From positions 5,141 to 69,140 of the IMG/VR virus record IMGVR_UViG_3300042363_001075: a stretch of DNA of 64,000 nucleotides; one strand, 5' to 3'. The notes below the pieces were generated by a model. The model saw nothing but the letters and a program-made list of their open reading frames with translations, was not told the DNA's origin and did not search any database. A program made the position numbers and the translations under genes. This document shows positions 1 to 58,105 of this stretch, one piece after another. Positions within the stretch are counted from its first letter, which is position 1. Each line of letters opens with the position of its first letter. The DNA is from a virus (lineage: Duplodnaviria > Caudoviricetes).

Positions 1-1790
1 ATCCACTACTACCTGAAGAACCTGCACTTCCACTACTTCCGCTTGATCCCGTTGTTCCGCTAGTCCCTGAACTTCCGCTTGATCCCGTTGTTCCGCTAGA
101 CCCCGAACTCCCACTTGTACCAGTTGACCCTGAAGATCCACTAGACCCTGCAGATCCTGAACTACCTGTACTACCGCTTGATCCCGATGTTCCTGACGAA
201 CCGCTAGTTCCTGTTGATCCTGAACTACCACTTGATCCTGAAGAACCTCCTGATCCAGAAGTACCACTACTTCCACTTGAACCTGCACTACCGCTAGATC
301 CCGATGTTCCTGTAGAACCTGATGTTCCACTACTTCCGCTAGTTCCTGTTGATCCTGAAGATCCGCTAGAACCTGAACTACCACTTGATCCTCTTGTACC
401 AGAAGTTCCTGATGAACCGCTTGTACCTGATGTTCCACTCGATCCGCTAGTTCCTGTTGAACCTGAAGAACCACTTGATCCTGCACTACCGCTAGAACCA
501 GATGTTCCACTACTTCCACTTGTACCTGTCGATCCTGATGAACCACTAGACCCCGCACTACCGCTTGATCCTCCTGTTCCCGATGTCCCTGAAGATCCAC
601 TAGACCCTGCAGATCCTGAACTACCACTTGATCCGGAAGTACCACTACTTCCACTTGTACCTGTAGAACCTGAGCTACCGCTAGATCCCGATGATCCAGC
701 ACTTCCTGATGTTCCTGTCGACCCTGAACTACCACTAGTTCCTGTTGATCCTGCACTACCACTACTTCCACTAGTACCTGTAGATCCGCTAGATCCCGAT
801 GTTCCTGTTGATCCTGAACTTCCACTAGAACCTGAAGATCCGCTAGATCCTCTCGTTCCTGAAGTACCACTACTACCTGATGTTCCGCTTGTTCCCGAAC
901 TTCCACTAGTTCCTGTCGAACCTGATGATCCGCTTGATCCTCCACTACCGCTAGATCCCGATGTACCTGTTGATCCTGAAGATCCTGAACTACCCGCACT
1001 TCCACTTGACCCTGAAGAACCACTTGTACCTGAGCTTCCACTACTACCTGACGATCCTGCACTTCCGCTTGATCCAGATGATCCACTTGTACCTGTAGAA
1101 CCTGAACTACCTGATGAACCGCTTGATCCACCTGTACCTGAAGTACCACTACTTCCGCTCGTACCTGTAGATCCTGAAGACCCACTTGATCCGGCACTAC
1201 CACTTGATCCTGATGTTCCCGTTGAACCTGAAGTTCCACTTGTTCCTGATGTCCCTGACGAACCGCTAGTACCAGTACTTCCACTTGAACCTGCAGATCC
1301 TGAACTACCTGACGATCCCGAGCTACCGCTAGATCCTGATGTTCCTGTTGACCCTGAAGATCCCGAACTTCCGCTCGAACCTGCAGATCCTGAAGAACCA
1401 CTTGTACCTGATGTTCCTGAAGAACCACTTGATCCTGCACTTCCGCTTGTTCCTGATGTCCCTGAAGAACCGCTAGTTCCTGTTGACCCACTACTACCTG
1501 AAGAACCAGCACTACCTGAAGATCCGCTTGATCCTGATGTTCCCGTTGATCCTGATGAACCCGAACTTCCACTTGATCCTCTCGTTCCTGAAGTACCACT
1601 ACTTCCGCTAGTTCCTGTTGAACCACTTGAACCTGAACTACCACTAGAACCCGCACTTCCGCTTGTTCCTGATGTACCGCTAGTCCCTGAAGAACCACTC
1701 GTACCTGTACTTCCACTACTACCTGATGTACCACTTGAACCTGAACTTCCTGAGGAACCACTACTTCCTGAAGAACCTGATGTTCCTGAA
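1..1790 (-). repeat. 9-nt-period coding repeat (Gly-X-Y, Ser/Thr, Asp-free)
   Basis: Continuous cctga/ccact/ccgct units; Gly every third codon. Confidence 0.95.
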
Positions 1791-2110
1791 TTTCCACCTA
1801 TGTCCCAATTAGCCCCGTCACTTTGAACGGAGATGGATCCATATTGTAATAATGTTTTAGTTGAAGTTCCGTCTATTGTTTGACCACCTGTAGTTGCGAC
1901 GGTAATTGTACCTGAACCACTATTTTTAATAACAAAGATTTGACCTGTATTTCCTACTGAAGTAGGTAGAGTTACGGTAAAAGTTCCGCTCGTACAGTCA
2001 ACCAAGTAATTATCAAAGTTGACGGTATAAGTCGTGCTTACCGCAGTATAAGGAAAATTAATTCCCCCTAAAGATTTGAACCCATTACGGGCTATAAATT
2101 CGTTTGCCAT
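1..2110 (-). CDS. Gly-X-Y Ser/Thr repeat fibre-like protein (partial, runs off left edge; not in ORF track)
   Basis: Hand translation from ATG at 2110: MANEFIARNGFKSLGGINFPYTAVSTTYTVNFDNYLVDCTSGTFTVTLPT...GQIFVIKNSGSGTITV...TIDG...SDGANWDIGGNSG. This tail-fibre-like beta module is followed by G-S-S/G-T-S/G-S-A triplets to position 1, with no stop seen. Confidence 0.85.
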   Translation of the reverse strand, partial: MANEFIARNGFKSLGGINFPYTAVSTTYTVNFDNYLVDCTSGTFTVTLPTSVGNTGQIFVIKNSGSGTITVATTGGQTIDGTSTKTLLQYGSISVQSDGANWDIGGNSGTSGSSGSSGSSGSSGSSGTSGSSGSTGTSGSSGTSGTSGTSGSAGSSGSSGSSGSTGTSGSSGTSGTRGSSGSSGSSGSTGTSGSSGSSGSAGSSGSSGSTGTSGSSGTSGTSGSAGSSGSSGTSGTSGSSGSAGSSGSSGSSGSTGTSGSSGSSGSSGSSGSAGSSGSTGTSGSSGTSGTSGTSGSTGTSGSSGSAGSSGSSGSTGTSGSSGTSGTGGSSGSSGSSGSTGTSGSSGSSGSAGSSGSSGSSGTSGSSGSSGSAGSSGSSGSTGTSGSSGSGGSSGSSGSTGTSGSSGTSGTSGSSGTSGTRGSSGSSGSSGSSGSTGTSGSSGSTGTSGSSGSAGSTGTSGSSGSTGTSGSAGSSGSSGSSGSTGTSGSSGTSGSSGSSGSAGSSGSSGTSGTGGSSGSAGSSGSSGSTGTSGSSGTSGSSGSAGSSGSSGSTGTSGSSGTSGTSGSSGTSGTRGSSGSSGSSGSSGSTGTSGSSGTSGSTGTSGSSGSAGSSGSSGTSGSGGSSGSSGSSGSTGTSGSSGTSGSSGSTGSSGSAGSSGSSGSTGTSGSSGSSGTTGSSGSSGTSGTTGSSGSSGSAGSSGSSG

Positions 2111-2157
2111 GTAGTTTTTCTTTTTTCCCTATCCAAAAGAAAATTTATGTTTTATAG

Positions 2158-2165
2158 ATAAATAC
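2158..2165 (-). promoter_or_regulatory. Putative late promoter box GTATTTAT
   Basis: 47 nt upstream of ATG 2110; same motif precedes many late genes. Confidence 0.55.
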
Positions 2166-2187
2166 TCCCCAATTATAGTTTGGGGAG
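2165..2187 (-). terminator. Hairpin after giant repeat gene (possible terminator or processing site)
   Basis: CTCCCCAA-7nt-TTGGGGAG perfect 8-bp stem; weak U-tract. Confidence 0.45.
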
Positions 2188-2216
2188 AAATTTTAAAAAA
2201 TAAATAAGATTTGATT

Positions 2217-5200
2217 TTAGAAGATAATTCTAGTCGCAACTAAGATGTCCCAAGTACCCGCATTTATCTTAGCAAATAGGTTAACAAAACCACCTGAGAC
2301 TGTCATATCCCATTTAAGACCCGCGGTTGATGCATTTAAATCGGGTGAAGAAACATCCGTGAAAGTAACTCCACCACTATCCCAAGTAGAATAAACTTGA
2401 CCCATTCTTTTTGCCCCACCGTTTTCAGTAATACAGTATTCAAAAAAGGCCGCACATCCAAAATCAGGTGTAAACTTATCCACAAGTACTGTTATATTTT
2501 GATTGTTTAACGATACCGTATTAACCTTATCGTAACTGACCGTTAATGTTAATACATTATCAACGGCATTATAAGTAAAGTTAGTTTCTGCGTTAATACC
2601 ACCAGCACCATCTGAAGTTAAAATATCGTTATCAGCACCTGGTACTGTTGGTGAAACACCACTTGTACCTGCAGATCCGCTAGTTCCTGATGTACCACTT
2701 GATCCGCTAGTTCCTGAAGATCCTGAACTACCGCTAGAACCTGAACTACCACTTGACCCTGAAGATCCACTAGTACCTGAACTTCCTGATGTACCGCTAG
2801 TACCTGAACTTCCTGATGTACCATTAGATCCTGATGTCCCGCTTGTACCTGAACTACCGCTTGACCCGCTGGTACCCGATGAACCTGATGTTCCACTTGT
2901 TCCCGATGTTCCGCTTGTTCCTGAACTTCCGCTTGATCCTGCAGATCCACTAGATCCAGAAGATCCTGATGATCCACTACTTCCTGATGTTCCTGTGCTT
3001 CCTGAAGAACCTGAACTACCGCTTGATCCTGCACTTCCGCTAGAACCTGATGTTCCACTTGTACCCGAACTACCGCTAGTTCCTGTAGAACCACTCGATC
3101 CCGAAGACCCTGAAGAACCGCTAGATCCCGCACTTCCACTTGTTCCTGTTGATCCTGAAGAACCTGAACTACCGCTAGATCCTGATGTACCTGTACTACC
3201 ACTTGAACCACTTGAACCTGAACTTCCTGAAGAACCGCCACTACCACTTGATCCTGATGTTCCTGAAGTACCACTACTTCCACTTGTACCTGTAGAACCT
3301 GACGATCCCGATGATCCTGAACTTCCTGAAGAACCTGAACTACCTGCAGATCCTGAAGATCCACTTGTACCTGTTGAACCTGAAGAACCTGAAGAACCAC
3401 TTGAACCTGAAGATCCAGAACTTCCTGATGTTCCACTACTTCCGCTTGTACCCGTTGAACCTGAAGAACCGCTAGACCCTGAACTACCTGATGAACCACT
3501 ACTTCCACTTGACCCCGCAGATCCTGATGTCCCACTAGTTCCTGATGATCCCGAACTTCCGCTTGTCCCTGATGTTCCGCTAGTTCCACTTGTTCCTGAA
3601 GATCCCGCACTTCCACTAGTACCTGAAGTACCCGATGAACCGCTTGACCCTGCAGATCCACTACTTCCGCTAGTTCCTGTTAAGCCTGAACTTCCTGAAG
3701 ATCCGGAAGAACCTGAACTACCGCTAGACCCTGAACTACCTGATGTACCACTTGATCCAGCACTACCACTAGTTCCACTTGTTCCTGATGAACCTGATGT
3801 TCCTGTTGATCCGCTACTACCACTTGAACCTGAACTACCGCTTGAACCTGTAGTCCCTGATGTACCACTTGATCCACTAGTCCCTGTTGAACCTGAAGAT
3901 CCACTACTACCACTTGATCCTGCACTTCCGCTAGACCCTGATGTTCCTGTTGAACCGCTACTTCCACTAGTACCTGATGTTCCTGCGCTTCCGCTAGACC
4001 CACTTGTTCCTGAAGAACCTGATGTTCCGCTACTACCTGATGTACCACTTGATCCTGAACTTCCTGATGTACCTGAAGAACCGCTTGTTCCTGTTGAACC
4101 GCTACTTCCACTAGTACCTGATGTTCCTGCACTTCCGCTAGACCCACTTGTTCCTGAAGAACCTGATGTCCCTGTTGATCCGCTACTACCTGATGTACCA
4201 CTTGATCCTGCACTTCCGCTAGAACCTGAGCTTCCTGAAGAACCACTTGATCCTGATGTACCTGTTGATCCACTACTTCCACTTGAGCCGGCAGATCCTG
4301 ATGTACCACTTGTTCCTGAACTACCGCTTGTACCCGTTGAACCGCTTGACCCTGAAGAACCACTTGTTCCTGATGATCCTGATGTTCCTGTTGATCCGCT
4401 ACTACCACTTGATCCAGTACTTCCGCTAGATCCTGATGTACCTGAAGAACCACTTGATCCTGCAGATCCTGATGTTCCTGTGCTACCACTACTTCCACTT
4501 GAACCGCTACTTCCTGAAGATCCCGCACTTCCGCTTGTACCTGAAGAACCTGATGTTCCTGAAGAACCGCTAGTTCCTGTTGATCCACTACTACCTGAAG
4601 ATCCTGCACTACCGCTTGATCCCGCAGATCCTGAAGTACCACTTGATCCCGCACTTCCGCTAGACCCCGATGTACCTGTTGATCCTGATGTTCCACTACT
4701 TCCTGAAGATCCCGCACTTCCACTTGAACCTGATGTTCCCGATGTTCCTGATGAACCACTACTTCCTGAACTACCCGCAGAACCGCTTGAACCTGAAGAT
4801 CCACTTGAACCTGCACTTCCGCTAGTTCCTGTTGAACCACTACTTCCTGAAGATCCAGCACTTCCGCTAGACCCACTTGTTCCTGTTGTTCCGCTACTTC
4901 CGCTAGTTCCGCTTGAACCTGATGATCCTGTAGAACCACTTGATCCTGATGATCCTGCACTACCGCTAGACCCTGATGTTCCACTTGTTCCCGAACTTCC
5001 ACTTGTTCCTGAAGATCCGCTTGATCCGGCAGAACCTGAACTACCTGATGTTCCTGAAGAACCACTAGTTCCTGTTGATCCTGAACTACCACTTGTACCT
5101 GCAGATCCAGATGTTCCACTTGATCCCGCAGATCCGCTAGTACCTGTCGATCCTGAACTTCCTGAAGACCCACTAGATCCCGAAGAACCTGATGTCCCAC

Positions 5201-8200
5201 TTGTTCCTGAACTACCACTTGACCCTGCGCTTCCGCTAGATCCTGATGAACCGCTTGTACCCGCACTTCCTGATGTTCCTGTAGAACCACTACTTCCACT
5301 AGATCCTGCAGACCCACTGCTCCCACTAGATCCTGCAGACCCTGATGTCCCTGATGTACCGCTTGTTCCTGAACTTCCACTTGTTCCTGTTGAACCTGAC
5401 GATCCCGAACTACCCGCAGAACCACTACTTCCGCTTGTTCCTGTACTACCGCTACTTCCTGATGATCCTGAAGAACCGCTAGATCCTGCAGAACCACTAC
5501 TTCCGCTTGTTCCTGTACTACCGCTACTTCCACTTGTTCCTGAAGAACCACTCGAACCTGATGTCCCACTTGATCCGCTAGTCCCCGTTGAACCTGAAGA
5601 TCCACTTGATCCCGCAGAACCTGATGTCCCACTTGATCCGCTAGTCCCCGTTGAACCTGAAGAACCTGAACTACCTGAAGAACCACTTGTTCCTGTAGTA
5701 CCGCTTGTCCCTGATGAACCTGATGATCCACTACTTCCACTACTTCCTGATGTTCCGCTAGTTCCTGAAGAACCACTAGTACCTGAAGTACCCGATGAAC
5801 CGCTTGTACCACTAGTCCCTGATGAACCGCTTGACCCCGCAGATCCGCTAGTTCCTGATGAACCATCTGTTCCGCTTGTACCGGCACTTCCACTTGTACC
5901 TGATGAACCGCTTGATCCTGAACTTCCACTTGATCCTGAAGAACCACTTGACCCTGCGGATCCTGAACTACCACTTGAACCTGATGTACCTGTTGAACCT
6001 GATGTACCGCTCGATCCTGAAGATCCAGAACTTCCTGATGAACCATCTGTTCCACTTGTACCCGCACTACCGCTAGTTCCTGTAGAACCACTTGATCCCG
6101 CACTACCGCTAGAACCTGTTGTACCACTTGAACCTGAACTTCCTGAAGAACCGCTACTACCACTTGTACCTGATGAACCATCCGTCCCACTTGTTCCCGA
6201 ACTTCCACTTGTTCCTGTTGATCCTGATGTTCCTGAAGATCCGCTAGTTCCTGCAGAACCTGCACTTCCTGAAGAACCGCTTGACCCTGATGTTCCTGTT
6301 GATCCGCTACTACCACTTGTACCTGATGAACCGCTTGTACCATCAGTACCGCTAGTACCTGAAGATCCACTTGTTCCGTCTGTTCCTGAAGTTCCGCTTG
6401 AACCTGAAGTTCCTGTTGAACCTGAGCTACCTGAAGATCCTGATGACCCACTACTACCACTTGATCCTGTACTTCCGCTAGATCCTGATGTTCCACTCGA
6501 ACCCGAGCTACCGCTAGTCCCCGATGAACCGCTTGTTCCATCTGTACCACTAGTCCCTGAACTTCCTGAAGTACCTGAGCTACCACTAGTTCCTGATGAA
6601 CCAGATGTTCCGCTTGAACCTGAGCTACCACTACTCCCACTTGATCCCGATGAACCACTAGTACCATCAGTTCCTGAAGTTCCGCTAGACCCTGAGGATC
6701 CACTTGTTCCACTACTTCCTGATGTACCATCTGTTCCTGAAGTTCCACTTGTACCGCTAGACCCTGATGTACCATCTGTTCCTGAAGTTCCACTAGATCC
6801 GGCACTTCCTGAAGTACCGTCTACACCTGAAAGACCTGAGGTTCCATCCGTTCCACTAGTCCCTGAAGACCCACTTGTTCCGTCTGTTCCTGAAGTTCCG
6901 CTTGAACCTGAAGTTCCATCTGTACCACTTGAACCTGATGTTCCATCTGTACCACTAGATCCTGAAGTTCCGTCAGTACCTGAAGTCCCTGAAGATCCGC
7001 TTGAACCATCAGTACCGCTAGTTCCTGAAGATCCACTTGAACCATCAGTACCGCTTGTACCACTACTACCTGAAGTTCCATCTGTTCCGCTTGTTCCTGA
7101 AGAGCCTGAAGTTCCATCTGTTCCGCTTGTTCCTGAAGAGCCACTTGTTCCATCTGTTCCGCTAGTTCCGCTTGACCCTGAAGTTCCGTCAGTACCTGAA
7201 GTACCGCTAGACCCTGAAGTTCCGTCTGTTCCGCTTGTTCCTGAAGACCCACTTGTTCCGTCTGTTCCGCTTGTTCCTGAAGACCCACTTGTTCCTGAAG
7301 ACCCACTTGTTCCGCTTGAACCAGAAGTTCCATCTGTTCCGCTCGTACCGCTTGAACCTGAAGTTCCATCTGTACCTGATGTACCGCTAGACCCTGAAGT
7401 CCCTGAAGAGCCGCTTGTTCCATCAGTACCACTTGTTCCTGATGAACCTGAAGATCCACTTGTTCCGTCTGTACCACTTGTACCTGAAGAACCTGAAGTT
7501 CCGTCTGTACCGCTAGTTCCTGATGATCCTGATGATCCGTCCGTACCTGAAGTTCCACTTGAACCTGAAGTTCCGTCTGTCCCACTAGTTCCGCTTGATC
7601 CCGAACTACCTGATGATCCATCTGTTCCACTTGTGCCTGAAGACCCGTCAGTCCCTGATGTCCCTGAAGATCCGTCCGTACCGCTTGTTCCATCAGTACC
7701 GCTTGATCCTGAACTACCGTCTGTACCTGATGTGCCGCTTGATCCTGATGAACCATCTGTTCCCGAAGTACCGGAACTACCATCAGTACCACTTGTACCT
7801 GAAGAACCACTACTACCGTCTGTCCCTGAAGTTCCGCTTGTTCCTGAAGAACCTGAAGTCCCATCTGTTCCGCTAGTTCCCGATGAACCGCTTGAACCTG
7901 AAGACCCATCAGTACCTGAAGTACCGCTAGAACCAGAAGTTCCATCAGTACCTGAAGTACCGCTAGACCCATCTGTTCCACTAGTTCCGCTCGAACCTGA
8001 AGATCCGTCTGTACCTGAAGTCCCTGAAGAACCACTGCTACCATCTGTTCCTGAAGTTCCACTAGACCCATCTGTCCCACTAGTACCACTACTACCCGAA
8101 GAACCGTCAGTACCGCTAGTCCCTGAAGATCCGCTTGTCCCATCAGTACCACTTGTTCCTGATGAACCTGAAGTTCCTGAAGATCCACTTGTTCCGTCTG

Positions 8201-10490
8201 TTCCACTAGTGCCGCTACTTCCTGAAGTTCCACTTGAACCTGAAGTTCCATCAGTACCACTAGTTCCTGAAGAACCTGAAGTTCCATCAGTACCACTAGT
8301 TCCGCTTGACCCTGAAGTCCCATCAGTACCTGAAGTACCGCTTGAACCTGAAGTTCCTGATGATCCATCTGTTCCGCTTGTTCCTGATGAACCGCTCGTA
8401 CCATCAGTTCCTGATGTTCCACTTGAACCACTACTTCCTGATGTACCGTCAACACCCGAAAGTCCTGAAGTTCCATCAGTACCACTTGTTCCATTTATAC
8501 CTGAAGTTCCATCAGTCCCACTTGTTCCTGATGAACCGTCTGTTCCACTTGTACCACTACTCCCACTAGACCCATCAGTTCCGCTTGTACCTGAAGTTCC
8601 GTCTGTACCACTTGTACCTGAAGAACCTGAAGTTCCGTCTGTGCCGCTAGTTCCTGATGATCCTGAAGTTCCGTCTGTGCCGCTTGTACCACTTGAACCT
8701 GAAGTTCCGTCTGTCCCACTAGTTCCGCTTGATCCCGAACTACCTGAAGTTCCGTCTGTGCCGCTTGTACCACTACTTCCTGAAGTACCATCTGTTCCAC
8801 TTGTTCCGCTTGACCCTGAAGTTCCATCAGTGCCGCTTGTCCCTGATGAACCGCTTGTTCCGTCTGTTCCTGAAGTTCCTGATGAACCACTTGACCCATC
8901 AGTCCCACTAGTTCCACTTGAACCTGAAGTTCCATCAGTACCTGAAGTACCGCTAGATCCTGAAGTTCCGTCTGTTCCACTTGTCCCACTTGATCCTGAA
9001 GTTCCATCTGTCCCACTAGTCCCTGAAGATCCGCTTGTACCGTCTGTTCCACTAGTCCCTGAAGACCCTGAAGTTCCGTCTGTCCCACTAGTGCCTGAAG
9101 AACCTGAAGAACCTGAAGTTCCATCAGTACCTGAAGTTCCACTTGAACCTGAACTACCGTCTGTTCCAGAAGTTCCTGAACTACCTGAAGTTCCACTTGT
9201 CCCACTTGACCCTGAAGTTCCACTTGTCCCTGAAGAACCGCTTGTTCCGTCAGTACCTGAAGTCCCGCTAGTTCCTGAAGAACCTGAAGTTCCATCTGTT
9301 CCACTAGTCCCTGAAGATCCGCTTGTACCGTCCGTACCGCTTGTACCGCTTGATCCAGAAGAACCATCTGTTCCACTAGTACCTGAACTACCTGAAGTTC
9401 CGTCTGTTCCACTTGTACCTGATGAACCACTTGTTCCGTCTGTACCGCTTGTACCACTACTACCTGAAGTTCCGTCTGTACCTGAAGTTCCTGAAGATCC
9501 ACTTGTACCATCAGTACCACTAGTTCCGCTTGACCCTGAAGTCCCATCAGTACCTGAAGTACCGCTTGAACCTGAGGTTCCGTCTGTACCTGAGGTTCCT
9601 GAAGATCCACTTGTACCATCAGTGCCGCTTGTGCCGCTACTTCCTGAGGTTCCGTCTGTGCCGCTTGTTCCACTTGAACCTGAAGTTCCGTCTGTGCCGC
9701 TTGTTCCACTTGAACCTGAAGTTCCGTCTGTACCGCTTGTACCACTACTACCTGAAGTTCCGTCTGTTCCACTAGTTCCTGATGATCCCGAAGTTCCATC
9801 TGTTCCGCTAGTTCCTGAAGATCCACTTGTACCATCAGTTCCACTAGTTCCTGATGAACCTGAAGTTCCTGATGAGCCTGAAGTACCATCTACCCCCGAT
9901 AAACCAGAAGTTCCACTTGTACCACTTGATCCTGAACTACCGTCAGAACCTGCCGTTCCGCTTGTACCTGAAGATCCTGAAGTTCCATCTGTACCACTTG
10001 TTCCGCTTGATCCTGAAGACCCATCTGTCCCCGCAGAACCACTTGTTCCGCTTGATCCTGAACTACCGTCAGAACCTGCAGTTCCGCTTGATCCTGAAGT
10101 TCCACTACTACCATCAGTACCACTTGTTCCTGATGAACCTGAACTACCAACAGTTCCTGAAGATCCACTTGTACCAGAACTACCACTTAATCCGTCAGTA
10201 CCTGATGTACCACTTGACCCTGAAATTCCTGATGTACCACTTGATCCACTAGATCCTGCACTTCCCGTAATACCACTTGATCCGTCTTGACCACTTGACC
10301 CTGAAGTACCAGAAGTACCCATAGTACCACTTGCACCACTTAAAATTGCTTGTAAATCACTTAGGGGAGCATAAAAAGATGAACCTTGAGGGCTTTGGGA
10401 AGTATCGCCTGTTACTACAACATGGAATATGTCATTTAATGTGACTGCTGAAACTCTGGTCCTATCGGTTAATCTATTATATATTGGCAT
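2217..10490 (-). CDS. Giant collagen-like / polyglycine-II-like Gly-X-Y Ser/Thr fibre protein (2757 aa)
   Basis: ~50 aa N-terminal head, ~2560 aa of G-X-Y (X mostly S/T; Y mostly S/D/A/T; no Pro), then a fibre-type motif NDILTSDGAGGINAETNFTYN and a ~110 aa beta-rich C-terminal domain. Confidence 0.85.
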   Translation of the reverse strand: MPIYNRLTDRTRVSAVTLNDIFHVVVTGDTSQSPQGSSFYAPLSDLQAILSGASGTMGTSGTSGSSGQDGSSGITGSAGSSGSSGTSGISGSSGTSGTDGLSGSSGTSGSSGTVGSSGSSGTSGTDGSSGTSGSSGTAGSDGSSGSSGTSGSAGTDGSSGSSGTSGTDGTSGSSGTSGTAGSDGSSGSSGTSGTSGLSGVDGTSGSSGTSGSSGTSGTDGTSGSSGTSGTDGTSGSSGTSGTDGTSGSSGTSGTDGTSGSSGTSGTDGTSGSSGTSGTDGTSGSSGTSGTDGTSGSSGTSGTDGTSGSSGTSGTDGTSGSSGTSGTDGTSGSSGTSGTDGTSGSSGTSGTDGTSGSSGTSGTDGTSGSSGTSGTDGSSGSSGTSGTDGTSGSSGTSGTDGTSGSSGTSGTSGTDGTSGSSGTSGTSGSSGTSGTSGSSGTSGTDGSSGSSGTSGTDGTSGSSGSSGTSGTDGTSGSSGTSGTDGTSGSSGTSGTDGTSGSSGTSGTDGTSGSSGTSGTDGTSGSSGTSGTDGSSGSSGTSGTDGTSGSSGTSGTDGTSGSSGTSGTDGTSGSSGTSGTDGTSGSSGSSGTSGTDGTSGSSGTSGTDGTSGSSGTSGTDGTSGSSGTSGTDGTSGTSGTDGSSGSSGTSGTDGSSGTSGTDGTSGINGTSGTDGTSGLSGVDGTSGSSGSSGTSGTDGTSGSSGTSGTDGSSGTSGSSGTSGTDGTSGSSGTSGTDGTSGSSGTSGTDGTSGSSGTSGSSGTSGTDGTSGSSGTSGSSGTSGTDGTSGSSGTSGTDGSSGSSGTSGTDGSSGTSGTDGSSGSSGTSGTDGSSGSSGTSGTDGSSGTSGTDGTSGSSGTSGTDGSSGSSGSSGTSGTDGTSGSSGTSGTSGTDGSSGSSGTSGTDGSSGTSGTDGSSGSSGTSGTDGSSGSSGTDGTSGTDGSSGTSGTDGSSGTSGTDGSSGSSGSSGTSGTDGTSGSSGTSGTDGSSGSSGTSGTDGTSGSSGTSGTDGTSGSSGSSGTSGTDGTSGSSGTSGSSGTSGTDGTSGSSGTSGTDGTSGSSGTSGSSGTSGSSGTSGTDGTSGSSGTSGTDGTSGSSGTSGTDGTSGSSGTSGTDGTSGSSGTSGTDGTSGSSGTSGTDGTSGSSGTSGTDGSSGSSGTSGTDGSSGSSGTSGTDGTSGSSGTDGTSGSSGTDGTSGSSGTSGTDGTSGSSGTSGTDGTSGLSGVDGTSGSAGSSGTSGTDGTSGSSGTSGTSGTDGTSGSSGTSGSSGSSGTSGTDGTSGSSGSSGSSGSSGSSGTSGSSGTSGSSGTSGSSGTSGTDGTSGSSGTSGSSGSSGTSGSSGSTGSSGSSGSSGSSGSSGSTGTSGSSGTSGTDGTSGSSGTSGTDGTSGSSGTSGSSGSTGTSGSSGSSGSAGSAGTSGSSGTSGSTGTSGSSGTSGTDGSSGTSGSSGSSGSSGSSGTTGSSGSAGSSGSTGTSGSAGTSGTDGSSGSSGSSGSSGTSGSTGTSGSSGSSGSAGSSGSSGSSGSSGSSGSSGTSGSAGTSGTDGSSGTSGSAGSSGSSGTSGTSGSSGTSGTSGSSGTSGTSGSSGSSGSSGSSGTSGTTGTSGSSGSSGSSGSTGTSGSSGTSGSAGSSGSSGSTGTSGSSGTSGSSGSSGTSGSSGSTGTSGSSGSAGSSGSSGSSGSSGSTGTSGSSGSAGSSGSSGSTGTSGSSGTSGTSGTSGSAGSSGSSGSAGSSGSSGSTGTSGSAGTSGSSGSSGSAGSSGSSGTSGTSGSSGSSGSSGSSGSTGTSGSAGSSGTSGSAGTSGSSGSTGTSGSSGTSGSSGSAGSSGSSGTSGSSGTSGTSGSSGSAGSSGSSGSTGSSGSSGTSGSSGTTGTSGSSGSAGSSGSSGSTGTSGSAGSSGSSGSSGSAGSSGSSGSSGTSGTSGSSGSAGSSGSSGTSGSTGTSGSSGSAGSSGTSGSAGSSGSAGSSGSSGSTGTSGSSGTSGSSGTSGSAGSSGSSGSSGSSGSTGTSGSAGSSGSSGTSGSSGSTGSSGSSGSTGTSGSSGTSGSSGSSGSTGTSGSSGTSGTSGSAGSSGSSGSTGTSGSSGSSGSSGSSGSAGSSGTSGSSGSTGTSGSSGTSGSSGSAGTSGTSGSSGSTGTSGSSGTSGSSGSSGTSGSSGTSGSSGTSGSSGSAGTSGTSGSSGSTGTSGSSGSAGSSGSSGSSGSTGTSGSSGTSGTTGSSGSSGSSGSSGSTGTSGSSGTSGTSGSAGSSGTSGSSGSSGSSGSSGSSGSSGLTGTSGSSGSAGSSGSSGTSGTSGSAGSSGTSGTSGTSGTSGSSGSSGTSGTSGSAGSSGSSGSSGSSGSSGSSGSTGTSGSSGTSGSSGSSGSSGSSGSSGSTGTSGSSGSAGSSGSSGSSGSSGSSGSTGTSGSSGTSGTSGSSGSGGSSGSSGSSGSSGSTGTSGSSGSSGSSGSTGTSGSAGSSGSSGSSGSSGSTGTSGSSGTSGTSGSSGSAGSSGSSGSSGSTGTSGSSGSSGSSGSSGSAGSSGSSGTSGTSGTSGTSGSSGTSGSSGSSGTSGTSGSNGTSGSSGTSGTSGSSGTSGSSGSSGSSGSSGSSGSSGTSGSSGTSGTSGSAGTSGVSPTVPGADNDILTSDGAGGINAETNFTYNAVDNVLTLTVSYDKVNTVSLNNQNITVLVDKFTPDFGCAAFFEYCITENGGAKRMGQVYSTWDSGGVTFTDVSSPDLNASTAGLKWDMTVSGGFVNLFAKINAGTWDILVATRIIF
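2659..10340 (-). repeat. ~7.7 kb Gly-X-Y coding repeat (~850 triplets)
   Basis: Gly every third residue throughout; synonymous codons heavily shuffled. Confidence 0.95.
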
Positions 10491-10498
10491 CTCAAACT

Positions 10499-10506
10499 AT
10501 AAATAT
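10499..10506 (-). promoter_or_regulatory. Putative late promoter box ATATTTAT
   Basis: 8 nt upstream of ATG 10490; part of palindrome ATAAATATTTAT. Confidence 0.6.
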
Positions 10507-10578
10507 TTATGACTTGGAAAGTATCTCCTTGTATTATATAATAATTATTAGGTTTATTGGTTTATAAGTATAGAACTC

Positions 10579-11082
10579 TTATCTTAAACATGGATTTAAG
10601 TTGGGAGTATTAGTCGGAGTTGGTGTTCTATACATACTTGGAGAAGGTATAACGGGAAGTGGATAATTTCCACAAGGATTATATGATGGTGTTACTGTTG
10701 GCGTACTTATTGGAGTTCCTGTTGGTGTTGAGGTATATGTAGGGGTAGGTGTTGGTGAAGGCAAACTACATTGATCGTATGTTGGTGTAGGTGTTGGTGT
10801 AGGTGTCGGAGTTGAGGTTTGTGTTTTTGTTGGTGTCAATGTTGGTGTATTTGTCGGTGTTGGTCGAGGCACATTTAAATAATATGTACACTTAGAATCC
10901 AAAACAAAAATTGTATAAGATCCGTAAATTTCTCTTGGTGGTATTAATAAAGAAGGATCAAAAGTGAAAGGTAATGTTACTTCACCTAAATTTATTGATA
11001 CATCACTATTATCAGGTTTGAACATTACTTGAGCTAACTCACCTTCGTTCAAAAAACTATTAATTATAATTTCATTTGCCAT
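10579..11082 (-). CDS. Pro/Thr-rich putative virion protein
   Basis: ~70 aa globular N-terminus, then [13 protein letters not shown] repeats with spaced Cys. Confidence 0.7.
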   Translation of the reverse strand: MANEIIINSFLNEGELAQVMFKPDNSDVSINLGEVTLPFTFDPSLLIPPREIYGSYTIFVLDSKCTYYLNVPRPTPTNTPTLTPTKTQTSTPTPTPTPTPTYDQCSLPSPTPTPTYTSTPTGTPISTPTVTPSYNPCGNYPLPVIPSPSMYRTPTPTNTPNLNPCLR

Positions 11083-13263
11083 TTATACGATTGTATAAGT
11101 AAAGTCGTTTATGAAACAAGATGATGTATCACAAACAGGACAGTCAGGATCAAACATCATAAATGGAGTTTTCAATAAAGAGAAGTTGTGTTTAACTTCA
11201 GGTGCCGATAATGGTTCGGTATAAAATCTAAATTGTGAAATACCACCATCGAAAGTTCCTGCAAAATTTTGTTCAAGTAATATGTGAGTTTTTAATTTGT
11301 TTAAGGTTGTTGCACTTAAAATATTTTCAGGAAAACATTCAGGATCTTGAATGTACAATCCTTCAGTTGTTGCTGTACAAGCAGATAATGTTAAGTTTTC
11401 GTGAAGACCCTGTGTTCCACCACCCCAAGACATGTTGAAAGGTACTGCAACTTGTTTTTCTTTGTCAGTATCTAATGCCCTTGGAATAACCTCTTCAAAA
11501 TTTTCAACTACATAAAATATTCTTCCGTTGATATAAATTTTCAACCTACCCAATCTGAACTTTGTGTCGTCTAACCATCTTTGGTTAAGTTGCACTATTT
11601 CTATTTCACCAGGTATTTCATATCCATTTGTGTATGGTGGTGCAATTAACGCAATATCATTGTTAGCAAGACTCTGTAAAAATTCTACTCTTGTGATATC
11701 ATCTAAACCACCAAACCATTTTAGATCACAAAAGTCAAGATATGTATATCTTTCCCAAACAACATCAATTAAAAACCAATGTTCTAGTTCTAACCAAGCA
11801 GGATTTACTTGTAGACAGTACGGATAAATTGGTGGTGTACAAATATCTACAATTGTGTAACCTGTAGTATAAGTTTGACCTGTAACGCAAGTTCCTGTTG
11901 TTTCACATCCGCCTGTAATTTTAATTGCTCTGATACCTATACCAGGATTTTTTGGATCCCCACAAAGTCTAAAAGATAAATTATTTGACAAATCATCCAT
12001 TTTTGGATCCTTTTCACAAGTATCCTCAACTGATTGAAAAATATTTGAGGGTTCTGCTGGAGGACATCCGCAAGTATCACAACCACAATTATAACAAGAT
12101 GTACAACACGGTGTTGTTGGTTCACACACCACAACACTTGGGTAAGTATCGCAAGGTGGTGTTGGCGATGGAGTTGGGGTCGGAGTTGGTGTGGGTATTG
12201 TTATTCCTGAACACACATGTTCAAAACACATCCATCCACAAGTTTCGCAAGGATCTAAGTCACAACCACAACCACATGTAAGTTTTTCTTGATAATTTCC
12301 TTGACATAAATTACAACCATAATTTAAATGAGGATCATACACACCACCTATTGGTCTTGGTGGATAAACATATATACATCTACTATTGTTTACGGAATAA
12401 TCACAACAAGCACATGTTTCTTCACATGTTAAACCTGATGTAACTCTTGTATATCCCGTATCACATTTAGGACTTCCGTCAGCGTAGTGATAAAATTTAT
12501 TTTCCGCTCTTGATCCTAAATAGAAAAAAGTGTTTTTATTATTTGGATAAATTTGATTTAAAGTTGTATATCCTGGAGGTGGGGTGTATTCGTCAACAAA
12601 TCTTGGTTTTAAAACCATTTCAACTGTCCAACCTTTATTCATTCTTTCAGGAAGGATATTATAGTCGTACCCGAATAACTTATAGAATCCTTGATAAAAA
12701 CCACCATAAAGTTCAACATATCTTCCTATCGTTGGTGCTGTTTTAGAAACCATTTGATATGTCGTATATAAAGGAACGCCTGAGAATTTATGATTATCAG
12801 GAACATTTGTTGTGGTTTGAATAAACTTCATTCGTCTATCATAAACAAGTCTATCAAATTTTTCACTGTCGTTAAAAAATCCGTTTGTGTATTGTAATAT
12901 ATCACCTTTAATTTTAGTGACTAAACCATTGTCAACACCAGTAAGTCCAATATCACAAAGAGTGTTTGCACTAAAACATTTAAAATCAACATCTTTAGGG
13001 TCATAAAAACTTTCAGAAACAATAACATTATTATAGTTGTATTGACCATAAAGAAGATTTAAGTTCTGAGTAGTCATTGGACTATTAAGATTTAAATTGA
13101 CTGGTAATTTTTTACCGTCCTCTAAACCAATAAGAAACGGAGAGAATACAACTTCTTGATTGTAGTCCACCTCATCCGACGCTAAAGACATATCCTGCCC
13201 GTCATAAATGACTTGCAACTTAAGTTTTGGATAGTTATATTGATTTATATTCTGATATGCCAT
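11083..13263 (-). CDS. LamG/concanavalin-like lectin-fold protein with Cys-rich and Pro-Thr insertions
   Basis: GWTVEMVLKP, GRLKIYINGR and FDGGISQFRFYTEPLSAPEVKHNF resemble LamG strands; CGCGC and CCTSCYNCGCDTCGC clusters. Confidence 0.6.
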   Translation of the reverse strand: MAYQNINQYNYPKLKLQVIYDGQDMSLASDEVDYNQEVVFSPFLIGLEDGKKLPVNLNLNSPMTTQNLNLLYGQYNYNNVIVSESFYDPKDVDFKCFSANTLCDIGLTGVDNGLVTKIKGDILQYTNGFFNDSEKFDRLVYDRRMKFIQTTTNVPDNHKFSGVPLYTTYQMVSKTAPTIGRYVELYGGFYQGFYKLFGYDYNILPERMNKGWTVEMVLKPRFVDEYTPPPGYTTLNQIYPNNKNTFFYLGSRAENKFYHYADGSPKCDTGYTRVTSGLTCEETCACCDYSVNNSRCIYVYPPRPIGGVYDPHLNYGCNLCQGNYQEKLTCGCGCDLDPCETCGWMCFEHVCSGITIPTPTPTPTPSPTPPCDTYPSVVVCEPTTPCCTSCYNCGCDTCGCPPAEPSNIFQSVEDTCEKDPKMDDLSNNLSFRLCGDPKNPGIGIRAIKITGGCETTGTCVTGQTYTTGYTIVDICTPPIYPYCLQVNPAWLELEHWFLIDVVWERYTYLDFCDLKWFGGLDDITRVEFLQSLANNDIALIAPPYTNGYEIPGEIEIVQLNQRWLDDTKFRLGRLKIYINGRIFYVVENFEEVIPRALDTDKEKQVAVPFNMSWGGGTQGLHENLTLSACTATTEGLYIQDPECFPENILSATTLNKLKTHILLEQNFAGTFDGGISQFRFYTEPLSAPEVKHNFSLLKTPFMMFDPDCPVCDTSSCFINDFTYTIV

Positions 13264-13274
13264 TTGTTTTACTT

Positions 13275-13282
13275 ATAAATAC
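13275..13282 (-). promoter_or_regulatory. Putative late promoter box GTATTTAT
   Basis: 11 nt upstream of ATG 13263. Confidence 0.6.
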
Positions 13283-13293
13283 TGCAAGTCAAA

Positions 13294-13301
13294 GTATTTA
13301 T
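13294..13301 (+). promoter_or_regulatory. Putative late promoter box GTATTTAT
   Basis: 15 nt upstream of ATG 13317; back-to-back with the box at 13275. Confidence 0.6.
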
Positions 13302-13316
13302 TAAGAAACTTTGACC

Positions 13317-14204
13317 ATGATTGGATTGAACCAAGAGTATTTTCAAACACCATATTATTTCTTTCTTAAAGATAAGGGAGATAAAATTGCCGTATATTAC
13401 TCAGTATCGGACACCATAACAGAATCAAGAAAAACGGATGATGTAATTATTGTTGATAAAGAGGTTTTCGAGGAAATCCAAAAAGTAATATCAAAAATTT
13501 TAAATTCAGGAAAAAAATTAACAAAAGAGTTTGTTCACAATCTTTTAGATAAAAAGGCAAAATCAAAAGAAAAACCTGACGGTGAACTTGGGGAGTTAGT
13601 TAATCCAGACGGATCTATAGTTAGTTCAAGTATTCCAATTTTGAATCAAAGAAACTTGGCGAAAAAGACTATGGACCAAACAGTTCGTATGTCACGAGTA
13701 AATCAATTCCCTTGGGTAAGAGTTTACTATGGTGAATCAACGGAAAGTAATGGTGAGACTATTAGTGAAATAGACCAATCTGAATCTTTCGGGTATGATG
13801 AAACAGAAGACGCATCAACTTACGATCAGGCAAACAAGATTTTGAAGAAAATGGGGGTTGAGGATCCGTTTGAAAGAAAAGAAAGAGTTCAGAGACTTGG
13901 GTTTGATAAAAATCTTGATAAAGAATTAAAAAACGAAAAAAAAAGGGGTGAATGTAAAAATTGCTTTACTAAAAGAAGATTGTCTGAGTTAGAAAAAGAA
14001 AAAATGGAAAAAATGATTGATGAGATATTAATTTCAAAAAAATCAAAAGACAAAGACTTTGTTAAAAAAACAAAAGATAGTGATGGAACTGAAAGTGTTA
14101 TTGAAAAATTACTTTTAAGAAATTTAGAAGCGGTAAAAAAACTAGCAGATAAAGAAGATATTGATATCGAAAAATTATTAAAACAATTAAAAAAAGGTGA
14201 ATAG
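13317..14204 (+). CDS. Hypothetical charged protein (possible internal head protein)
   Basis: ORF; ATG at 13317 preferred over TTG at 13311; K/E-rich with ITE-type sites. Confidence 0.7.
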   Translation: MIGLNQEYFQTPYYFFLKDKGDKIAVYYSVSDTITESRKTDDVIIVDKEVFEEIQKVISKILNSGKKLTKEFVHNLLDKKAKSKEKPDGELGELVNPDGSIVSSSIPILNQRNLAKKTMDQTVRMSRVNQFPWVRVYYGESTESNGETISEIDQSESFGYDETEDASTYDQANKILKKMGVEDPFERKERVQRLGFDKNLDKELKNEKKRGECKNCFTKRRLSELEKEKMEKMIDEILISKKSKDKDFVKKTKDSDGTESVIEKLLLRNLEAVKKLADKEDIDIEKLLKQLKKGE

Positions 14205-14664
14205 TAATTTATATAATAAAACAATTGAGTTACCAGAAGAAATTGTTGAGTACTTACAATCTTGCTTTGAGTATATCCCAAATTCGGATAGTAGTGTGGA
14301 AGGACACAAAAGAAATCAAGAATTAAGGGACACTGGATATGTTACTTATCAACAATTGGGTAGAATTAAAAGTTGGTTTGATAATTATAGTGGTGATGGG
14401 ACTGACGCACCTTATATATTAAATGGTGCTGACTATATGAAAAATTGGGTAGAAACAACTATTCAGGATTTGAGAAAACAAGATACAACAAACCCTGAGG
14501 TTGAGAATATAATGCCAGATGAAATAGATGGTAAACTTGTTAAAGACTTAGGACCAATCGCTGATATGATAAGACCTTCAAAAGATCATAGCACTTTTAC
14601 TCAAGATGTTAGAATTAAAGAAGATCTCGACAGAATAAACCAAATAATGAAACAAATAATTTAA
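14197..14664 (+). CDS. Hypothetical protein
   Basis: 155 aa ORF overlapping the previous stop. Confidence 0.7.
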   Translation: MNSNLYNKTIELPEEIVEYLQSCFEYIPNSDSSVEGHKRNQELRDTGYVTYQQLGRIKSWFDNYSGDGTDAPYILNGADYMKNWVETTIQDLRKQDTTNPEVENIMPDEIDGKLVKDLGPIADMIRPSKDHSTFTQDVRIKEDLDRINQIMKQII

Positions 14665-14665
14665 A

Positions 14666-14950
14666 ATGCAAACAGAAAGATTAGACTTCGCACAACCGGC
14701 AAATGACTTGACTGCAATTGCTGATTTACAAAGAAAAAGTTTGATAGTAAAAAACGATTACAAAACTGTCAACCCATATTCTTCTGTAAACCCTGACGCT
14801 CTCTCTGACGGAGATGAATCAGGAAAAGGCACAGGTATTTTTTTAGACACCGTTAATGGTGGTTCTTCTATTGATATCATAGAAAGAAAAAATGAAATCA
14901 AAGTTAATGAATATCAACCTAACAAACCATATACTACTCCTGCGGCGTAA
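14666..14950 (+). CDS. Hypothetical small protein with internal duplication
   Basis: RKSLIVKNDYKTVNPYS / RKNEIKVNEYQPNKPYT repeat pair. Confidence 0.65.
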   Translation: MQTERLDFAQPANDLTAIADLQRKSLIVKNDYKTVNPYSSVNPDALSDGDESGKGTGIFLDTVNGGSSIDIIERKNEIKVNEYQPNKPYTTPAA

Positions 14951-15348
14951 TGAAACTTTACAACACATTAAATAAACTTATTTTAGAAGTAGCAACAGCT
15001 GATCAAATAACTGATGCTATAAGAAATAAAAAGGTATGTGTTATTTATTATAACGGTGACGAACCTGGTGGTAAGGGGTTGAGGGTTGTTGAACCTGTAG
15101 CCTATGGTTACAGTAAAAAAGGTAATCCTGTATTAAGGGCTTGGGATAGAGAAGGATCTTCACACAGAGCTTATTTAGGAGAAAAACCTCTTCCAAGTTG
15201 GAGATTTTTTAGGGTGGATAAAATGGAATTTATTAGACCTACTCAAGAAGTATTCAACGAGCCTCGACCTGGTTATAATCCTACAGGTGACAGGAGTATG
15301 GAAAGAATGATAATTAACGCAGTATTTGGAAACGAAAATATAACATAA
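14950..15348 (+). CDS. Stand-alone WYL-domain protein
   Basis: DAIRNKKVCVIYY...LRVVEPVAYG...VLRAW...WRFFRVDKM fits the WYL pattern; no HTH. Confidence 0.7.
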   Translation: MKLYNTLNKLILEVATADQITDAIRNKKVCVIYYNGDEPGGKGLRVVEPVAYGYSKKGNPVLRAWDREGSSHRAYLGEKPLPSWRFFRVDKMEFIRPTQEVFNEPRPGYNPTGDRSMERMIINAVFGNENIT

Positions 15349-15349
15349 T

Positions 15350-15970
15350 ATGAATTCAGAATCAGAACTACTACAAAAATTAATGATCTCAAAACAGATC
15401 ATGGAAAAACACAATGATATGAGTAGAGGTCAATCTCGTAACATAAACATGGGTAACGACTTTTCAAGTCCCATGGTTGAGAATTACGAAGCACCAGCAG
15501 CAAGATATAATTTACCTCAAGATTTATTAGAAGAATCAAGACCAGTGTCACAACCAAGACAATCAAATGTTCCAATAGAAGATAGAATTGCAAGTTCTAA
15601 ATTACCTGATGAAATTAAAAAATTAATGATGGAACACCCAATACAACAACCTAGTATGGGCATGTCTACAAATAGTGTTTTATCAGAAGAATTAATTTCA
15701 AAGGCATCAAGGTTGATGGGTACGAATGCTAAAGGTGATCCTTATCAAGAAGAACCACAAAGAAAACAACAAAAACAAACTACCTCACAATCATTTGGTT
15801 TAGACATTAACCAAATAAAACAAGTTGTTAGAGAAACTGTTGAGGAGGTCCTGTCGGAAAATGGTCTTTTAGTAGAACAAGAAAGCAAATCTTCAGATAT
15901 GTTTAAGTTTAGAGTAGGACAACATTTGTTTGAGGGTAAAGTCCTCAAAGTAAAAAAAATGAGTAAATAA
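15350..15970 (+). CDS. Hypothetical protein
   Basis: 206 aa ORF; Q/S-rich linker and small C-terminal beta domain. Confidence 0.7.
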   Translation: MNSESELLQKLMISKQIMEKHNDMSRGQSRNINMGNDFSSPMVENYEAPAARYNLPQDLLEESRPVSQPRQSNVPIEDRIASSKLPDEIKKLMMEHPIQQPSMGMSTNSVLSEELISKASRLMGTNAKGDPYQEEPQRKQQKQTTSQSFGLDINQIKQVVRETVEEVLSENGLLVEQESKSSDMFKFRVGQHLFEGKVLKVKKMSK

Positions 15971-15990
15971 TATTTTACAATAGATTTATG

Positions 15991-16018
15991 AAACCCACTT
16001 TTACGAGTGGGTTTTTTT
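15991..16018 (+). terminator. Rho-independent terminator
   Basis: AAACCCACT-TTTACG-AGTGGGTTT followed by a T-tract. Confidence 0.85.
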
Positions 16019-16065
16019 GTTGATTATTCTGAAATTTTGGCTTATAATTTTACAAAGAAAAAATT

Positions 16066-17277: not shown

Positions 17278-17280
17278 GAC

Positions 17281-18006
17281 ATGATTAATATCCCAATTAC
17301 AAAAATTTTATTTTTAGATATAGAGACAGTTGGTAGTTGTAAAGACTATCAAACTTGTATAAAATCAAATCCTCGAGTTGCAGAACAGTTTGACAAGTAT
17401 TTTGATTGGTTTTTAAAAAGATTCCCTGAAGATAAAGAATGGGCTGAAGATAGGTCAACAGAAGAACACATGGACATGGTGTTTAGATCAAGAGCGGCAC
17501 TTGTTCCTGAATTCGCAAAAATTGTTTGTGTTTCTATGGCCTTTGTTTTAGATAATGGTGAAACAAAAAAACAAACATTCTCAGGTGATGATGAACACAA
17601 ATTACTTAGCGAGGTTAGAGATCTTTTAAATCGTTGTCATAAATTAGATTTTTATCTTTGTGGTCATAACCTTAAAAACTTTGATATTCCTATGTTGGCA
17701 AAACGAATGATTATCAACGGAATTATGCCATCAAAGATTCTCCCTTCATACGATACAAAACCTTGGGAGATTAAAGCAATTGATACAAAAGAAATTTGGC
17801 AGTACGGAGCATACACGGCTATTGGGTCTTTGGATTTGATGTGTGCTTGTTTGGACATCCCAACCCCAAAAGATGGTGAAGTTAATGGAGGTATGGTTCA
17901 TAGTGCTTATTGGGAACAAAGTAGGTTAAAAGAAATTTCTGAATACTGTGAAAGAGATGTTGAGGTATTAATTGACGCAATAATAAAATTAAAAAGTTTA
18001 AAATGA
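17281..18006 (+). CDS. DEDD 3'-5' exonuclease (PolB-exonuclease-like, stand-alone)
   Basis: FLDIET, GHNLKNFDIPML and YCERDV motifs. Confidence 0.85.
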   Translation: MINIPITKILFLDIETVGSCKDYQTCIKSNPRVAEQFDKYFDWFLKRFPEDKEWAEDRSTEEHMDMVFRSRAALVPEFAKIVCVSMAFVLDNGETKKQTFSGDDEHKLLSEVRDLLNRCHKLDFYLCGHNLKNFDIPMLAKRMIINGIMPSKILPSYDTKPWEIKAIDTKEIWQYGAYTAIGSLDLMCACLDIPTPKDGEVNGGMVHSAYWEQSRLKEISEYCERDVEVLIDAIIKLKSLK

Positions 18007-20011: not shown

Positions 20012-20015
20012 AAAA

Positions 20016-22059: not shown

Positions 22060-22067
22060 CTTTATAC

Positions 22068-22730: not shown

Positions 22731-22732
22731 GT

Positions 22733-27538: not shown

Positions 27539-27540
27539 AT

Positions 27541-29162: not shown

Positions 29163-29168
29163 AAAAAT

Positions 29169-30227: not shown

Positions 30228-30229
30228 TT

Positions 30230-46200: not shown

Positions 46201-46208
46201 ATAAATAC
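46201..46208 (-). promoter_or_regulatory. Putative late promoter box GTATTTAT
   Basis: 14 nt upstream of ATG 46186. Confidence 0.6.
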
Positions 46209-58061: not shown

Positions 58062-58105
58062 TTTTAATCATTTTATTTTTATGTTTATTTTTTCACATTT
58101 TTTAC

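Follow-up and report, generated by a model that had tools for sequence, protein, structure and literature searches.

A giant proline-free Gly-X-Y protein and its giant neighbour in an uncultured T4-like jumbo phage lineage

The giant gene pair and its repeats

We analysed a 64,000-nt stretch of DNA (the window), comprising bases 5141–69140 of the 69,140-bp IMG/VR contig IMGVR_UViG_3300042363_001075, in which two adjacent genes on the minus strand (gene 1 and, directly downstream, gene 2) encode giant proteins built of Gly-X-Y triplets. All coordinates are positions in the window unless another contig is named. The gene pair comprises the following features.

2217–10490 (-): gene 1, giant Gly-X-Y protein; ATG start, 2757 amino acids (aa), 227 kDa, pI 4.05
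10338–10490 (-): N-terminal anchor module of gene 1, 51 aa; common to smaller proteins with other tips
5865–10337 (-): repeat zone A of gene 1, triplets 1–497 (aa 52–1542); acidic, 99 Asp
2652–5864 (-): repeat zone B of gene 1, triplets 498–854 (aa 1543–2613); uncharged, aperiodic
2220–2651 (-): C-terminal all-beta tip domain of gene 1 (C-domain), 144 aa; family and fold matches
2–2110 (-): part of gene 2 inside the window; the frame continues to the contig end
1796–2110 (-): N-terminal domain of gene 2 (N-domain), 105 aa; fold and family matches
10499–10506 (-): promoter-like motif ATATTTAT, 8 nt upstream of the gene 1 ATG
2158–2165 (-): promoter-like motif GTATTTAT, upstream of gene 2

A script count found 854 consecutive Gly-X-Y triplets in gene 1 (aa 52–2613, 2562 aa) with an unbroken register and no Gly run in either of the other two phases. 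Gly made up 33.3% of the repeat, with a single GSG triplet. The X position was occupied by Ser in 437 triplets, Thr in 403 and other residues in 14 (Ser or Thr in 840/854), and the Y position by Ser in 663, Asp in 99, Ala in 46, Thr in 41 and other residues in five. The repeat contained no Pro, no Lys, Arg or His and no Glu, leaving Asp as the sole charged residue, and its 1544 Ser and Thr residues amounted to 60% of the sequence. The first-pass annotation had described a giant Gly-X-Y protein at this locus with no register break, mostly Ser or Thr at X, Ser, Asp, Ala or Thr at Y, no Pro or basic residue, a small head and a C-terminal domain flanking the repeat, and a late box ahead of the gene. 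The counts agree with that description, the flanking non-repeat parts being 51 and 144 aa long, and the late-box-like motif was found 8 nt upstream of the ATG. The second giant gene, the two zones of the repeat and the strong divergence of its DNA, all described below, were not part of that annotation.

The repeat falls into two zones. All 99 Asp residues lie in zone A, in which a unit of about four triplets (GTS-GSS-GTS-GTD) recurs with irregular Asp spacing of 2 to 20 triplets, and zone B consists of 357 uncharged triplets (GSS, GTS, GSA and GST) with no periodicity. The Pfam Collagen profile (PF01391) matched gene 1 with 1102.8 bits against a cut-off of 27.2, so that both the Gly period and the profile score place gene 1 in this family. 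A sequence search of the PDB with 300 aa of the repeat returned only animal collagens and designed peptides, matched through the Gly period, and was uninformative. The long antisense open reading frame at 2995–10290 (+), which has none of the conserved end domains, was dismissed as arising from the repeat itself. Gene 2 encodes at least 2416 aa with 770 uninterrupted triplets, and its repeat is Ser/Thr-rich and not acidic.

The giant length might in principle be an assembly artefact, with a short repeat expanded or chimeric in the contig, or the frame might be non-coding; repeats often defeat short-read assemblies, and the contig itself breaks off inside gene 2 at a 77-bp exact repeat. The DNA of gene 1 and its relatives renders this explanation extremely unlikely. 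Tandem Repeats Finder detected diverged arrays only, with 61–91% matches, and the repeat DNA is only ~65–70% identical to itself. The 12-aa peptide unit GTSGSSGTSGTD occurs in 52 copies encoded by 46 different DNA versions, and GSSGSSGSS in 58 occurrences encoded by 57. The longest exact DNA repeat within gene 1 is 68 bp, shorter than the read length, and since such repeats are spanned by ordinary short reads, expansion or collapse of gene 1 during assembly is unlikely. Conserved non-repeat domains lie at both ends of gene 1 in one frame. Furthermore, a related phage (relatives here are IMG/VR contigs located through the gene 2 N-domain) was assembled from ten different samples with 783 or 784 triplets in gene 1. 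These ten assemblies (L019–L028) are 99.95–100% identical across 17.2 kb and differ structurally only by one 9-bp, one-triplet insertion or deletion, which is independent evidence that such genes assemble reproducibly.

The GC content at third codon positions of gene 1 (0.158) fits the AT-rich genome of this phage, and its overall GC content of 49% reflects positions one and two of the Gly, Ser and Thr codons. A strict Gly period over scrambled synonymous DNA points to selection on the protein, with Gly at every third position, rather than to recent slippage. The register, unbroken over 854 + 770 triplets despite the scrambled DNA, argues for a structure that requires Gly at every third residue.

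Modular architecture and conservation in relatives

The 51-aa anchor of gene 1 was found on 29 smaller proteins (53–570 aa) at 55–96% identity, as well as in gene 1 of L019–L028 and of L012. In the 29 smaller proteins it is followed by spacers of 0, 4, 6, 11–20 or 40–44 triplets and by at least four unrelated C-terminal tips, one of which carries a Peptidase_S74 intramolecular chaperone. One protein (P0006, 243 aa) combines the gene 1 anchor with the gene 1 tip (50% identical) around only 16 triplets, and on its contig a homologue of gene 2 comes next. Lengths of 0 to 854 triplets behind one anchor mark the Gly-X-Y stretch as a spacer of variable length between anchor and tip, which is the logic of phage receptor-binding fibres: a conserved anchor, a variable shaft and an exchangeable tip. 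The tip domain itself was found on collagen and non-collagen stalks alike. Structure–function work can draw on a natural series: 16, 783/784 or 854 triplets between one kind of anchor and one kind of tip, and 0–44 where the anchor is combined with other tips. No giant protein with the gene 1 anchor was found in a collection of 5.8 billion proteins, which evidently does not hold the IMG/VR proteins.

A search of 1.84 billion proteins gave 208 representatives of the C-domain family (E ≤ 1e-3). The domain is nearly always C-terminal, behind stalks of Pro-free Ser/Thr Gly-X-Y repeats, Pro-containing collagen or non-collagen sequence. The model predicted from 31 sequences (pLDDT 88.8) is all-beta. 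Structural comparison with VIA-align matched it to aa 176–298 of the baseplate protein of Klebsiella phage KP1 (9f4a_LA; Z 11.4, rmsd 2.2, 106 aligned residues) and to C-terminal domains of the tailspikes of Acinetobacter phage P1 (6e1r, Z 9.6) and of phage Fri1 (6c72, Z 8.3) and of the tail fibre of Klebsiella phage Kp9 (7xy1, Z 9.1). T4 gp9 was among the Foldseek matches, and all matched structures, gp9 included, are parts of trimeric fibre or baseplate proteins. C1q/TNF-like chains were absent from the 50 best fold matches, an absence that does not exclude such a fold.

The gene 2 N-domain is a widespread viral domain present at 81 IMG/VR loci. Its predicted model (pLDDT 91.8) resembles tailspike attachment domains, with fold matches to the Solidus tailspike (Z 12.8), aa 46–175 of CBA120 TSP4 (Z 10.3), a KP1 baseplate protein (Z 10.3) and the capsid spike of Pa223 (Z 9.8), after which the next match drops to Z 5.5. 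The domain also matched “minor tail protein” genes of cultured Microbacterium phages and many tail-fibre-like BFVD models. Both terminal domains therefore have folds of known fibre, tailspike and baseplate proteins. By sequence, their profiles had no match in the PDB, and the C-domain, the 51-aa anchor and the globular inserts and tips of relatives had none in Pfam or PHROGs. The single C-domain as query located no relative in IMG/VR, and the search with it found no cultured phage. As a side observation, the N-domain also occurs on a contig labelled as a giant-virus metagenome-assembled genome (L068), and its hits H25–H29 include the haloarchaeal Halorubrum tailed viruses 4 and 29 and a Thermocrinis virus; judged from these sequence matches, its host range is very wide for one attachment-type domain.

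The contig is, by its gene content, a 69-kb fragment of a T4-like jumbo phage. The window encodes a gp23-type capsid protein, a gp20-type portal, a large terminase and a prohead protease, together with PhoH, DnaK and a Clp-type AAA+ protein. CheckV estimated completeness at 21%, from which a genome size of roughly 330 kb follows. The closest capsid proteins, 40–46% identical, are those of the 484-kb metagenomic phage LR756508, Microcystis phage Mel-JY01 and the Flavobacterium “immuto” phages; a Megablast search with the capsid gene gave no match among GenBank phages.

Giant gene pairs were also present in the following relatives, where triplet numbers joined by + are separate runs; the last entry is a further metagenomic phage with three such proteins.

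L019–L028 (ten samples): gene 1, 783/784 uninterrupted triplets with the same anchor and tip; gene 2, complete open frame of 3122 aa with 684+132+36 triplets, ~120-aa globular inserts between them and a 212-aa tip
L014: gene 1, 430+266 triplets; gene 2 cut by the contig end
L015/L016: gene 1, 265+118 triplets; gene 2, 334–342 triplets
L017/L018: gene 1, 365+33 triplets; gene 2, 3072 aa
L029: gene 1, 224+258 triplets; gene 2 cut by the contig end
L011 (LR756501.1 107296–131529), 7243–24232 (+): trio of G-[ST]-[ST] proteins of phage LR756501, with a tip match

Capsid proteins of giant-fibre relatives were 82% and 77% identical to that of the window, which makes these phages true relatives of the window phage. 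The operon partners and divergent neighbours of the gene pair are kept at 43–70% identity. The acidic-then-neutral zoning of gene 1 and the non-acidic character of gene 2 are conserved too, and Gly-X-Y runs resume in register past globular inserts. In the 735-kb metagenomic phage LR756501, three neighbouring genes encode proteins rich in G-[ST]-[ST] (1664, 2372 and at least 1349 aa), and the 1664-aa protein carries the gene 1 tip domain at its end (42% identity). A comparison of the repeat arrays of the window and L019 for colinear DNA orthology gave no diagonal that stood out (best ~0.65–0.69 identity, z ~2). In L018, gene 2 (10001–19216, +) uses Ala at X and Gln at Y in 192 triplets each and contains 49 Pro; its N-terminal part is a non-repeat stretch of 1087 aa, and this divergent triplet flavour indicates that shaft chemistry is not fixed in the family.

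The fibre reading and its alternatives

On balance, we read genes 1 and 2 of this T4-like jumbo phage as trimeric virion fibres whose collagen-like shaft has become enormously long and is probably O-glycosylated. The short N-terminal anchor would dock the fibre on the virion, the Gly-X-Y shaft, expanded in this lineage to 854 triplets, would set its reach, and the C-terminal beta-sandwich domain would trimerise the chains and probably contact the target. Three chains may register at the C-domain and zip towards the N-terminus, forming a Pro-free, collagen-type triple helix of ~0.73 µm; the likeness of the C-domain fold to trimeric tailspike tips is suggestive of such C-terminal registration followed by zipping. 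Only if triple-helical would the gene 1 shaft measure 733 nm at 0.286 nm per residue (~426 nm for zone A and ~306 nm for zone B), a length far beyond any described phage fibre. The acidic proximal 426 nm, with 99 Asp per chain, could hold the fibres extended and apart, and the neutral distal 306 nm would bear the tip. The fibres would probably benefit the phage by greatly widening the capture radius of its large virion, which diffuses slowly.

The promoter-like motif bears on whether the giant proteins belong to the virion. RTATTTAT occurs at 32 sites in the window against 13.7 expected, a number reached in none of 100 shuffles, and stands just ahead of both giant genes and of the portal, terminase and protease genes. 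It fits a late-promoter element and supports late co-expression without proving it. That head and packaging genes share the motif counts against proteins made in the infected cell or exported instead of built into the virion, for instance as a matrix, a cell coat or a decoy. We consider such a role quite unlikely, given also that the 51-aa N-terminus of gene 1 has no evident signal peptide, that the terminal domains resemble tailspike, baseplate and capsid-spike domains and that the gene 2 N-domain occurs in annotated minor tail proteins, although the neighbouring glycan genes could serve a cell-surface remodelling programme (PMC7824862).

These glycan genes flank the fibre genes in the window and in relative G001, which is of the L019 type and has glycan genes on both sides of its fibre pair.

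16066–31776 (+): glycan gene cluster of the window; glycosyltransferases and sugar-nucleotide enzymes
L094 (G001:C1:77300–90538), 459–10799 (-): second glycan block of G001, on the far side of the fibre pair

The window cluster encodes GT-B, GT2_5, GT31-like and GT2 enzymes, a GDP-mannose 4,6-dehydratase, an epimerase, a cytidylyltransferase and a sugar-isomerase-like TIM barrel, all candidate modifiers of the fibres. The second block of G001 encodes a GT1+GT9 fusion, an 895-aa GT1, a GT2, a GT9 and two FkbM-type methyltransferases. The glycosyltransferases encoded nearby might O-glycosylate the ~1540 Ser/Thr hydroxyls of each gene 1 chain and so stabilise and hydrate a helix that has no imino acids. 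Stabilisation of a Pro-free helix by glycosylation fits the flanking clusters, the association being one of gene neighbourhood. In its strongest form, this proposal holds that homotrimeric collagen helices of ~0.7 µm without imino acids are held by dense O-glycosylation from a phage-encoded glycan factory. We put this forward tentatively, as possible but somewhat doubtful; if true, no known viral fibre would be longer, collagen without proline would exist in nature, and the capture radius of the virion would grow several-fold.

Several points weigh against the fibre with a triple-helical, glycosylated shaft. Members of the PF01391 type are stabilised by substantial Pro or hydroxyproline (Hyp) or by charge pairs, and the gene 1 repeat has neither; stable bacterial and phage collagens have Pro in ~19–50% of X positions (PMC3368898, PMC8968730). 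With no Pro/Hyp and no ion pairs, an unmodified G-S-S triple helix may be only marginally stable. Cyanophage glycan clusters have been proposed to remodel host surface polysaccharide (PMC7824862), and the window glycosyltransferases may likewise act on such polysaccharide instead of on the fibres. Finally, the Z 8–12 matches of the predicted models to beta-sandwich domains indicate a shared fold, not a shared function.

The main rival reading retains a virion fibre but takes the repeat to be flexible and, like a mucin, heavily O-glycosylated, with the chains joined only through their folded end domains. Such a tether or polymer brush would work as a hydrated shield or a sticky tentacle. In host–guest peptides, Ser and Thr form triple helices poorly. 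The repeat is Pro-free and 60% Ser/Thr, a Pro/Thr-rich mucin-like protein is encoded in the same operon, and glycan clusters flank the fibre genes, all of which would suit a tether. Disorder, however, needs no Gly at every third residue, and not one of the 854 + 770 triplets is off register despite near-saturated synonymous divergence; in relatives, the Gly-X-Y runs even restart in register beyond globular inserts. We therefore give the tether a minor though real share of the probability.

The first-pass annotation had left open whether gene 1 is a virion whisker far longer than a normal tail fibre or a huge polyglycine-II (PGII) bundle, and had named drag or capture in dilute water, a hydrated shield and ice binding as possible roles. 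The fibre part of the former is sustained by the anchor–spacer–tip build, the tailspike- and baseplate-like folds, the shared promoter-like motif and the giant pair in relatives, its location on the virion being what we infer. Neither the bundle nor an ice-binding role was borne out. Gly-X-X repeats with small side chains can form PGII helices, as in the snow-flea antifreeze protein and the tip of T-even gp38, and the 12-residue period of zone A could in principle be one helix plus a turn; the repeat would then fold back into a compact bundle or sheet, perhaps ice- or surface-binding, instead of a long fibre. Known PGII bundles, however, are compact little structures with a far higher Gly content, in which regular turns connect short helices of constant length. 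The gene 1 repeat has exactly one third Gly and a single GSG triplet; the 357 triplets of zone B have no turn-like period, and the Asp residues of zone A are spaced by anything from 2 to 20 triplets. A range of 0 to 854 triplets on one anchor also fits a linear shaft better than a closed bundle, and we regard folding into a PGII bundle as very unlikely.

Knowledge of collagen-like shafts in phage fibres goes back to 1998 (Smith et al. 1998, cited in PMC1079782), and in cyanomyovirus P-SSM2 the product of orf028 is a collagen-like fibre protein whose X and Y are often Pro, Ser or Thr (PMC1079782). As in gene 1, phage collagens place Gly-X-Y between the non-collagen anchor and tip of fibre-like proteins, but they have tens of triplets, whereas gene 1 has 854 uninterrupted ones with no Pro and no basic residue. 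Prophage protein EPclA of enterohaemorrhagic Escherichia coli (EHEC) is a proven trimer with a triple helix nucleated by its flanking domains; it has Pro in about half of the X positions and many charge pairs, and gene 1 has neither (PMC3368898). A search among proteins of 1516–4825 aa returned 84 collagen-like ones, many of them Pro-free and Ser/Thr-rich and many with Peptidase_S74, showing Pro-free G-S/T-S/T shafts to be common in phage-like proteins. Among these 84, no uninterrupted run exceeded 108 triplets and the highest total was 236, so that the gene 1 run is ~8 times the longest run among the large database proteins searched. In the literature, we found no description of giant or proline-free phage collagens and nothing specific on huge phages and collagen or on glycosylated phage fibres. 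Gene 1 is best read as a phage fibre of a known architecture, made extreme by its Pro-free shaft, and belongs to a gene pair conserved in an uncultured jumbo phage lineage; the uninterrupted 854-triplet run without Pro or basic residues is far outside the described range.

BclA of the Bacillus/Clostridioides exosporium is similarly organised, with an N-terminal anchor, a Thr-rich Gly-X-X shaft of strain-variable length and a C-terminal beta-sandwich trimerisation domain; its collagen-like regions are O-glycosylated and form a hair-like nap (PMC8968730). It differs in having mostly GPT triplets, at most some tens of them, and in belonging to bacterial spores rather than to a phage; its C-terminal domain is C1q/TNF-like. 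In the cuticle collagen of annelids (vent worms), a triple helix of micrometre scale, galactosylated Thr at Y replaces hydroxyproline as the stabiliser. A triple-helical gene 1 shaft would share its great length, with glycosylated Thr as a putative stabiliser; the annelid protein differs in containing Pro and in being part of an animal extracellular matrix.

Jumbo myoviruses with extra flexible head or tail fibres include Tenacibaculum phages PTm1/PTm5 as well as CBB, 121Q, Atu_ph07 and Y3, and these fibres have been proposed as host-capture aids (PMC7824862, PMC13282480). PTm1/PTm5 infect a flavobacterium, the host group hinted at for the window phage, which probably infects a member of the Bacteroidota. 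The reviews on these decorated phages name no fibre genes and do not mention collagen (PMC7824862, PMC13282480), and our search with the gene 2 N-domain found none of the six phages. If the fibre reading is true, some jumbo phages would devote at least ~5% of an estimated 330-kb genome to two fibres several times the virion length, and reach-extending appendages in dilute waters would become a testable idea. If the shaft is a triple helix, it would be a natural test of collagen stabilisation by glycosylation and hydration alone, and a long, protease-poor, sequence-simple scaffold of biomaterial interest.

Neighbouring genes and further motif sites

Two further genes belong to the operon of the giant pair.

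10579–11082 (-): 167-aa protein with a Pro/Thr-rich, mucin-like tail; same operon, conserved in G001
11083–13263 (-): 726-aa Cys-rich protein with a PTPTPTP linker; first gene of the operon, conserved in G001

The 167-aa protein is mucin-like over its C-terminal two thirds and 55% identical to its G001 counterpart, and the 726-aa protein shares 61% identity with its own. Neither had a Pfam or PHROG match. Many genes for structure and packaging have an RTATTTAT site just ahead of them (e.g. 49998–50005, 52046–52053 and 46201–46208). The gp23-like major capsid protein (41499–43454, -; 651 aa) matched Pfam Gp23 only over aa 399–636, and its tblastn matches to other phage capsids came in two pieces covering about half of the protein, which suggests a large insertion or an extra domain. 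At 56205–60269, a full-length DnaK (HSP70, 858 bits) adjoins a ClpB/ClpC-type double AAA+ protein; judging from their families, the two could act as folding aids for very large structural proteins.

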